A stretch of 853 nt of DNA from Escherichia coli. Lineage in GTDB: Bacteria > Pseudomonadota > Gammaproteobacteria > Enterobacterales > Enterobacteriaceae. This document shows positions 1 to 853 of this stretch, piece by piece. The position numbers were made by a program, and so were the translations under genes. The notes under the pieces were generated by a model that saw nothing but the letters and a program-made list of their open reading frames with translations, made no database searches and had not been told where the DNA came from. Location of the stretch: assembly GCF_003334335.1 (NCBI RefSeq), contig NZ_QOWQ01000143.1; one strand, 5' to 3'. The stretch's first letter is position 1. The number at the start of each line of letters is the position of its first letter.

Positions 1-494
1 GTCACCCACATGCTGTACTGCACCTGGGCCATGTAAGCCGACTTTATGGCCTCGAAACCACCGAGCCGGAACTTCATGAAATCCCTGGAGGTAAACGGGC
101 ATTTCAGCTCAAGGCCATTGCCGTCACTGCATAAACCATCGGGAGAGCAGGCTGTGCGCATACTTTCGTCGCGATAGATGATCGGGGATTCAGTAACATT
201 CACGCCGGAAGTGAATTCAAACAGGGTTCTGGCGTCGTTCTCGTACTGTTTTCCCCAGGCCAGCGCCTTAGCATTAACTTCCGGAGCCACACCGGTGCAA
301 ACCTCAGCCAGCAGGGTGTGGAAGTAGGACATTTTCATGTCAGGCCACTTCTTTCCTGAGCGGGGCTTTGCTATCACGTTGTGAACTTCTGAAGCGGTGA
401 TGACGCCGAGCCGTAATTTGTGCCATGCATCATCCCCCTGTTCGACAGCTCTCACGTCGATCCCGGTACGCTGCAGGATAATGTCCGGTGTCAT
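1..494 (-). CDS. exo: Lambda exonuclease (Exo / Red-alpha), 5'->3' dsDNA exonuclease; N-terminal 164 codons, 3' end truncated by window edge (full protein is about 226 aa)
   Basis: Minus-strand translation from the ATG at 494-492 reads [164 protein letters not shown](T), with no stop through position 3. This matches the lambda Exo N-terminus as I recall it, including Arg28 and the PD-(D/E)XK catalytic residues Asp119, Glu129 and Lys131. It was absent from the ORF track only because there is no in-window stop codon. Confidence 0.96.
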
Positions 495-853
495 GCTGCC
501 ACCTTCTGCTCAGTGGCTTTCTGTTTCAGGAATCCAAGAGCTTTCACTGCTTCGGCCTGTGTCAGTTCTGACGATGCGCGAATGTCGCGGCGAAATATCT
601 GGGAACAGAGCGGCAATAAGTCGTCATCCCATGTTTTATCCAGGGCGATCAGCAGAGTGTTAATCTCCTGCATGGTTTCATCGTTAACCGGAGTGATGTC
701 GCGTTCTGGCTGACGTTCTGCAGTGTATGCAGTATTTTCGACAATGCGCTCGGCTTCATCCTTGTCATAGATACCAGCAAATCCGAAGGCCAGACGGGCA
801 CACTGAATCATGGCTTTATGCCGTAACATCCGTTTGGGATGCGACTGCCACGG
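491..853 (-). CDS. bet: Bet (Red-beta) single-strand annealing / recombination protein; C-terminal 120 codons plus TGA stop, 5' end lies beyond the window (full protein is about 261 aa)
   Basis: The minus-strand frame is open from 853 down to the TGA at 493-491 and reads [120 protein letters not shown]. This matches the C-terminal region of lambda Bet. The supplied ORF (491..829) starts at an internal Met (Met codon 829-827); the frame continues without a stop to the window edge, so the true start is upstream and outside the window. Confidence 0.96.
499..505 (-). promoter_or_regulatory. Probable Shine-Dalgarno sequence for exo (AAGGTGG on the minus strand), embedded in the last codons of bet
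   Basis: The minus-strand sequence reads ...GAGCAGAAGGTGGCAGCATGA. AAGGTGG lies 4 nt upstream of the exo ATG (494-492), with the AGG core 7 nt upstream. This is consistent with a ribosome-binding site placed inside the upstream gene for coupled translation. Confidence 0.55.

Follow-up and report, generated by a model that had tools for sequence, protein, structure and literature searches.

The 853 nucleotides analysed here, referred to below as the window, carry on their minus strand the 3' part of bet, the gene for the Red-beta annealase, which leaves the window at its high-coordinate end, and downstream of it the 5' part of exo, the gene for lambda exonuclease (Red-alpha). We hold it to be practically certain that the window represents an intact bet–exo junction, belonging to the Red module for homologous recombination in a lambdoid phage of E. 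coli, and that the two genes are co-transcribed; none of the observations speaks against this reading. The original prediction, made from the letters without database searches, had recognised the C-terminal 120 residues of Bet and the N-terminal 164 residues of Exo, and both readings are borne out residue by residue. The minus-strand translation yields Bet residues 142-261 followed by a stop, with 119/120 residues as in lambda, and translation of positions 1-494 yields 164 codons of Exo, with 164/164 residues as in lambda. Strand and order had been likened to the lambda pL operon, with bet upstream of exo, and the lambda RefSeq annotation agrees: exo (31348-32028) and bet (32025-32810) lie on the complement strand with a 4-nt overlap, and gam is located upstream of bet. 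The lambda Red genes (exo NP_040616, bet NP_040617; NC_001416 31348-32810) accordingly share identity, order, strand and the 4-nt ATGA overlap with the window. The lambda Red bet–exo feature is already known, and nothing in the window is new in kind. Its features are collected in Table 1.

Table 1. Annotated features of the 853-nt window; Bet and Exo residues carry the numbering of the complete proteins.
Feature	Positions	Strand	Details and basis
bet, 3' part (Red-beta annealase)	491..853	-	codons 142-261 at 853..494, stop TGA 493..491
End of the Bet N-terminal DNA-binding/annealing domain (residues 142-177, including W143)	746..853	-	7ujl_A residues 142-178
Bet interdomain linker (residues 178-194)	695..745	-	limits from PMC6393309, PMC9512822; identical to lambda
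Bet C-terminal three-helix bundle (residues 195-261; L223, F249, Q252, E256)	494..694	-	6m9k_D, 8tfu_A
Bet codon 255	512..514	-	ACT (Thr) here, GCA (Ala) in lambda
Shine-Dalgarno-like GAAGGTGG	499..506	-	4 nt 5' of the exo ATG, within the last bet codons
ATGA overlap	491..494	-	exo start ATG 494..492, bet stop TGA 493..491; from the sequence
exo, 5' part (lambda exonuclease, Red-alpha)	1..494	-	ATG 494..492, codons 1-164 at 494..3
Exo helix E, residues T90-T95	210..227	-	ridge T90, L91, F94 docks into the Bet C-terminal domain
Exo catalytic codons D119 (138-140), E129 (108-110), K131 (102-104)	102..140	-	PD-(D/E)XK motif
exo codon 165, first two bases	2..1	-	gene leaves the window at the low-coordinate end

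The identity of the Exo fragment is supported at several levels. A search of PDB sequences returned 6m9k_A, 1avq_A and 3slp_A (lambda Exonuclease) with E about 1e-111, and the alignment with 6m9k_A is identical at 164/164 positions. The Pfam model YqaJ (PF09588) matches residues 24-164 (E=1.1e-28), and the NCBIfam model TIGR03033 (lambda-exonuclease family) matches with E=6.7e-12, under its whole-protein cut-off. The NCBIfam scores of the Exo and Bet fragments (45.8 and 37.7 bits) both lie below the curated whole-protein cut-offs because the queries are fragments and not whole proteins. Complete Exo comprises 226 residues, and its gene has the full length of 681 nt in the phage PhiR5_1, which is identical to the window and is described below. 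R28, L78, T90, L91, F94, T95, D119, E129 and K131 are all present in the translation. Of these, we take D119, E129 and K131 to be the catalytic PD-(D/E)XK residues (structures 1AVQ and 3SLP/3SM4) and R28 to belong to the 5'-phosphate-binding pocket; the role of L78 is likewise assumed from the structural literature on lambda Exo. By its sequence, the Exo fragment qualifies as a member of the lambda exonuclease family (YqaJ / PD-(D/E)XK viral recombinase nucleases).

The Bet fragment retrieved 8tfu_A, 6m9k_D and 7ujl_A, all named 'Recombination protein bet', the last of which is the cryo-EM construct of Red-beta residues 1-177. It is matched by the end of the Pfam model RecT (PF03837; fragment residues 1-42, E=1.2e-7) and by the NCBIfam model TIGR01913 bet_lambda (E=1.8e-9), both matches being limited to the final ~35-45 positions of the profile, the ones represented inside the window, and it also matches the PHROG annealase families 12233/252. 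The fragment can consequently be assigned to the Bet/Red-beta family of single-strand annealing proteins. Red-beta residues 1-177 constitute the DNA-binding and annealing domain, in which W143 is almost universally conserved (PMC9512822). From this annealing core, which includes F66 and W143, the window holds residues 142-177 alone, and these are identical to lambda. W143, L223, Q240, F249, Q252, E256 and K258 are all present in the translation. Compared with 6m9k_D residues 1-67, the fragment displays one mismatch, at position 255, and the comparison with 8tfu_A likewise gives one; this exchange, A255T, is the sole residue at which the encoded proteins depart from lambda. Position 255 is naturally variable across lambdoid phages: lambda has Ala, whereas PhiR5_1, POCJ13 and PA28 have Thr, and five others have Ser.

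How closely does the DNA itself follow lambda? The similarity to lambda Exo and Bet is far beyond chance, and the near-identical, near-full-length match to the lambda genome that the original prediction had anticipated was indeed obtained: the window aligns without gaps to NC_001416 31535-32387, where 833/853 bases are the same (97.66%). The catalytic and interface residues are all shared. Among the 20 substitutions, 14 lie in exo and are synonymous throughout, and six lie in bet; just two of the 20 change the protein, both of them in Bet codon 255. The DNA is not that of lambda itself, being 97.7% identical to lambda and 100% identical to Escherichia phage PhiR5_1. A megablast search of the phage collection found 198 records matching the window, with PhiR5_1 (PV340545.1 5549-6401) as the best at 853/853 nt, and with lambda isolates at 97.5-97.7% identity. 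PhiR5_1 is a complete phage genome record with E. coli C as its listed host. Its annotation corresponds to that of the window, with an 'exonuclease' of 681 nt and a 'Bet' of 786 nt, both full-length and downstream of Gam and Kil; the completeness of exo and bet beyond the window is taken from this identical record. In PhiR5_1 as in lambda, gam is followed by bet and bet by exo on a single strand, the last two genes overlapping, which is the layout of the Red operon. A literature search turned up no paper on the PhiR phage series. The segment is also common in its host: matching DNA occurs in 3,610/5,426 complete E. coli assemblies, where it is nearly always chromosomal, reaches a best identity of 99.8% and is annotated as 'lambda exonuclease family protein' next to 'phage recombination protein Bet'.

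Recombineering cassettes derive from lambda itself. It is conceivable that the window stems from an engineered lambda Red cassette, on a recombineering plasmid or in a recombineering strain, and not from a natural phage or prophage, given that the Red genes have been widely cloned and that, of the 5,206 matches recorded across complete E. coli assemblies, 15 are located on plasmids. However, the window departs from lambda at 20/853 bases and coincides over its whole length with a natural isolate, PhiR5_1, and neither the phage nor the E. coli genome collection showed a cloning vector or engineered strain matching at 100%. Because of the 20 differences we reject a lambda-derived recombineering cassette as the origin, and we give an engineered source virtually no chance. 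We attribute the window instead to a PhiR5_1-type lambdoid phage or prophage, and neither to lambda nor to a lambda-derived recombineering construct, and PhiR5_1 or an indistinguishable relative is most likely the origin of the sequence.

Several records of these relatives deserve a comment. The 'Campylobacter phage CJLB-4' record (MW057783.1 31455-32307; 48,361 bp, host Campylobacter jejuni) contains the segment at 97.7% identity and at near-lambda coordinates, which suggests that this record is essentially lambda DNA, perhaps from a control or a contaminant. The gene gam has an annotated length of 417 nt in lambda RefSeq (segment 2017-2433) and of 297 nt in PhiR5_1 (segment 5282-5578), a difference in length that may reflect only another choice of start codon. 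Outside the window, between kil and cI, PhiR5_1 encodes on the minus strand of segment 6367-7940 a HipD antitoxin and a HipA toxin, which together correspond to PDC-M66B/PDC-M66A, a candidate defence system in PADLOC (E=4e-16 and 6e-15). On the lambda map, as we understand it, rexAB adjoins cI; the HipD/HipA pair may thus represent defence cargo at a position comparable to that of lambda rexAB.

A comparison of substitution patterns among the relatives indicates which reading frames are under selection. From nine relatives that align without gaps, including one that matches the window exactly, 117 distinct substitutions were collected. The exo frame contains 51 synonymous and 13 non-synonymous changes, and the bet frame 33 synonymous and 19 non-synonymous changes as well as a single change that affects the stop codon. 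In the four frames that share no wobble positions with the genes, by contrast, 6-12 synonymous changes stand against 37-57 non-synonymous ones. The only other frames rich in synonymous changes are antisense frames, and their excess is a geometric effect, since their wobble positions are those of the genes. Purifying selection therefore acts on exactly the minus-strand frames of exo and bet.

Might the opposite strand nevertheless contribute coding capacity? Two plus-strand open reading frames run antisense to the bet–exo junction, at 397-663 (88 aa) and 420-713 (97 aa). Either could be taken for a real overlapping gene: the first matches the PHROG family phrog_23778 over its full length (E=6e-61), the second matches phrog_22877 (E=3e-66), both families being labelled 'unknown function', and both frames run uninterrupted in lambda, as they do in the majority of relatives with 96% identity or more. 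Yet an alignment of 12 related phage segments speaks against this reading. Both contain two internal stops in POCJ13, which is 91.6% identical and has intact exo and bet; phi80, Mulock and Ss-VASD also have a broken frame at 397-663, whose GTG start has been lost in AU6Stx1 and phi80, and the frame at 420-713 is broken in Ss-VASD and has lost its stop in 2B8 and PA5. Substitutions in the former comprise 16 synonymous, 35 non-synonymous and 2 stop-related changes, and in the latter 27 synonymous, 28 non-synonymous and 3 stop-related changes, the higher synonymous count of the latter following from geometry, because this frame shares wobble positions with bet. Neither frame has an NCBIfam match, a sigma-70-like promoter is lacking on either strand, and none of the phage records whose features were inspected annotates a plus-strand gene here. 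A literature search for ribosome-profiling evidence of antisense reading frames in lambda exo/bet gave nothing specific. In view of the internal stops in relatives and the minus-strand substitution pattern we reject these frames as genes, and we regard additional coding capacity on the plus strand as extremely unlikely. The families phrog_23778 and phrog_22877 are best explained as antisense overcalls of gene callers, which would have been clustered from near-identical prophages.

Scans for other elements in the window gave a similarly plain picture. Allowing E values up to 10, an Rfam scan produced five matches, all at chance level (10-14.5 bits against gathering scores of 38-60), and these matches, to eukaryotic lncRNA and snoRNA families and to one sRNA family, were rejected. 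A promoter scan of both strands of the window yielded 0 promoter-like sites. A single terminator-like hairpin on the plus strand (718-732) was set aside, as 0.6 such hairpins are expected by chance. Neither direct nor inverted repeats were detected within the window, nor was a Chi site (GCTGGTGG). Base composition is even along the window, at 50-55% GC, and thus gives no sign of a foreign insert. Together with the broken plus-strand frames, the negative scans for RNA, promoters, repeats and folds agree with the earlier claim that the window contains neither further coding capacity nor non-coding structure.

Alternatively, the window might belong to a prophage remnant that has decayed and lost function, with exo or bet truncated beyond the limits of the window. 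Truncated copies do exist: in the Stx phage Stx2a_WGPS9 (NC_049923.1 1471-1961), only window positions 363-853 are represented, at 99.0% identity, and the truncated exo is annotated as 'exonuclease, N-terminal part'. PHROGs, moreover, includes families that resemble fragments of exo or bet, namely phrog_19459, phrog_38119 and phrog_17377. Here, however, both frames are open over the whole window, an identical complete phage genome record carries both genes at full length, and the substitution pattern indicates ongoing purifying selection. A decayed remnant is accordingly very unlikely in our estimation, and an intact junction remains the preferred reading. The three short families, each labelled 'unknown function', correspond to window positions 285-494 (phrog_19459; 73 positions, Exo residues 1-70), 363-494 (phrog_38119; 44 positions, Exo residues 1-44) and 494-673 (phrog_17377; 60 positions, the C-terminal Bet residues 202-261), and presumably derive from truncated prophage copies.

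The junction between the two genes is itself conserved. Positions 490-494 (GTCAT on the plus strand) are invariant in 13/13 aligned phages, and the CCTTC (plus strand) of the Shine-Dalgarno-like site is kept in ten close relatives and in phi80; around this putative exo ribosome-binding site, the coding strand reads ...GAGCAGAAGGTGGCAGCATGACACC. An ATGA stop/start overlap is an arrangement typical of translational coupling. The overlap and the putative ribosome-binding site embedded in the end of bet suggest that the translation of Exo is probably coupled to that of Bet. An unusual RNA fold was not found at the junction (545..445, coding strand; z = -0.71).

The junction also marks a limit of similarity between phages. 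In Ss-VASD, TL-2011c, ArgO145, PhiR12_3 and Klebsiella phage Mulock (79%), DNA similarity to the window is confined to exo and ends at its start codon. In phi80, Mulock, Ss-VASD and Stx phages such as TL-2011c, a homologous exo lies directly downstream of an annealase gene, with a junction that overlaps likewise; nucleotide identity in exo amounts to 75-79% over window positions 1-495/504 in these relatives, and the similarity spans 1-721 in phi80. The annealase genes of phi80, Mulock and Ss-VASD are much more diverged from bet and are longer (918, 846 and 951 nt, respectively, against 786 nt here). In Ss-VASD, the C-terminal region of the annealase, including the Exo-binding domain, retains 43% amino-acid identity to that of Bet. 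The bet/exo boundary (window positions 495-504) is a mosaic module boundary located at the gene junction.

How might the two proteins interact? The crystal structure 6M9K reveals the C-terminal domain of Bet as a three-helix bundle, and mutating Exo L91/F94 or Bet L223/F249 abolishes the complex and impairs recombination, with Bet Q252 and E256 also located at the Exo interface (PMC6393309). In Red-beta, the part that interacts with lambda Exo, and possibly also with SSB, comprises residues 178-261 (PMC9512822). By analogy, the Bet C-terminal domain encoded here probably binds Exo, and the host SSB too. Both halves of the Exo–Bet interface fall within the window, and the residues that vary most recurrently among nine close relatives are Exo-90 (T/A/V; 225-227) and Bet-255 (A/T/S), the former located on the helix-E ridge and the latter between the interface residues Q252 and E256. 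Conceivably, variation at these two positions tunes how specifically or how tightly Exo and Bet alleles pair when mosaic recombination shuffles them. Clean co-variation of Exo-90 with Bet-255 was sought among the nine phages and not found; the tuning idea is weakened by this result, and we consider it unlikely.

The RecE/RecT system of the Rac prophage follows a like logic, combining a 5'-3' exonuclease with a single-strand annealing protein, and is functionally analogous. RecE-like exonuclease families give weak PHROG matches (phrog_434, E=2.8e-10). At close range, however, RecE and RecT belong to other protein families, and the proteins encoded in the window are orthologues of lambda Exo and Bet.

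Both genes are read from the minus strand and follow gam in the early leftward operon (pL), and we envision a scenario whereby the ATGA overlap joining the end of bet to the start of exo would couple the synthesis of Exo to that of Bet. Exo, presumably a PD-(D/E)XK-type 5'-to-3' exonuclease that assembles into a toroidal trimer, would digest one strand at a double-strand DNA end and thereby generate a 3' single-stranded overhang. Docking of the C-terminal three-helix bundle of Bet on helix E of Exo might then load Bet onto the emerging single strand, which the loaded Bet would anneal to complementary DNA. For the allele with Bet A255T, the biochemical activities of both proteins are those that we infer by analogy with lambda.

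Recombineering is built on the Red system, which is also the textbook example of recombination by an exonuclease and an annealase. The window adds nothing new to this system; it serves as a clean positive control, for which the unaided first identification was exact. Two practical points emerge. The segment is a natural lambdoid allele, marked by Bet A255T, and not lambda, and two PHROG families labelled 'unknown function' seem to have arisen as antisense overcalls across bet and exo.
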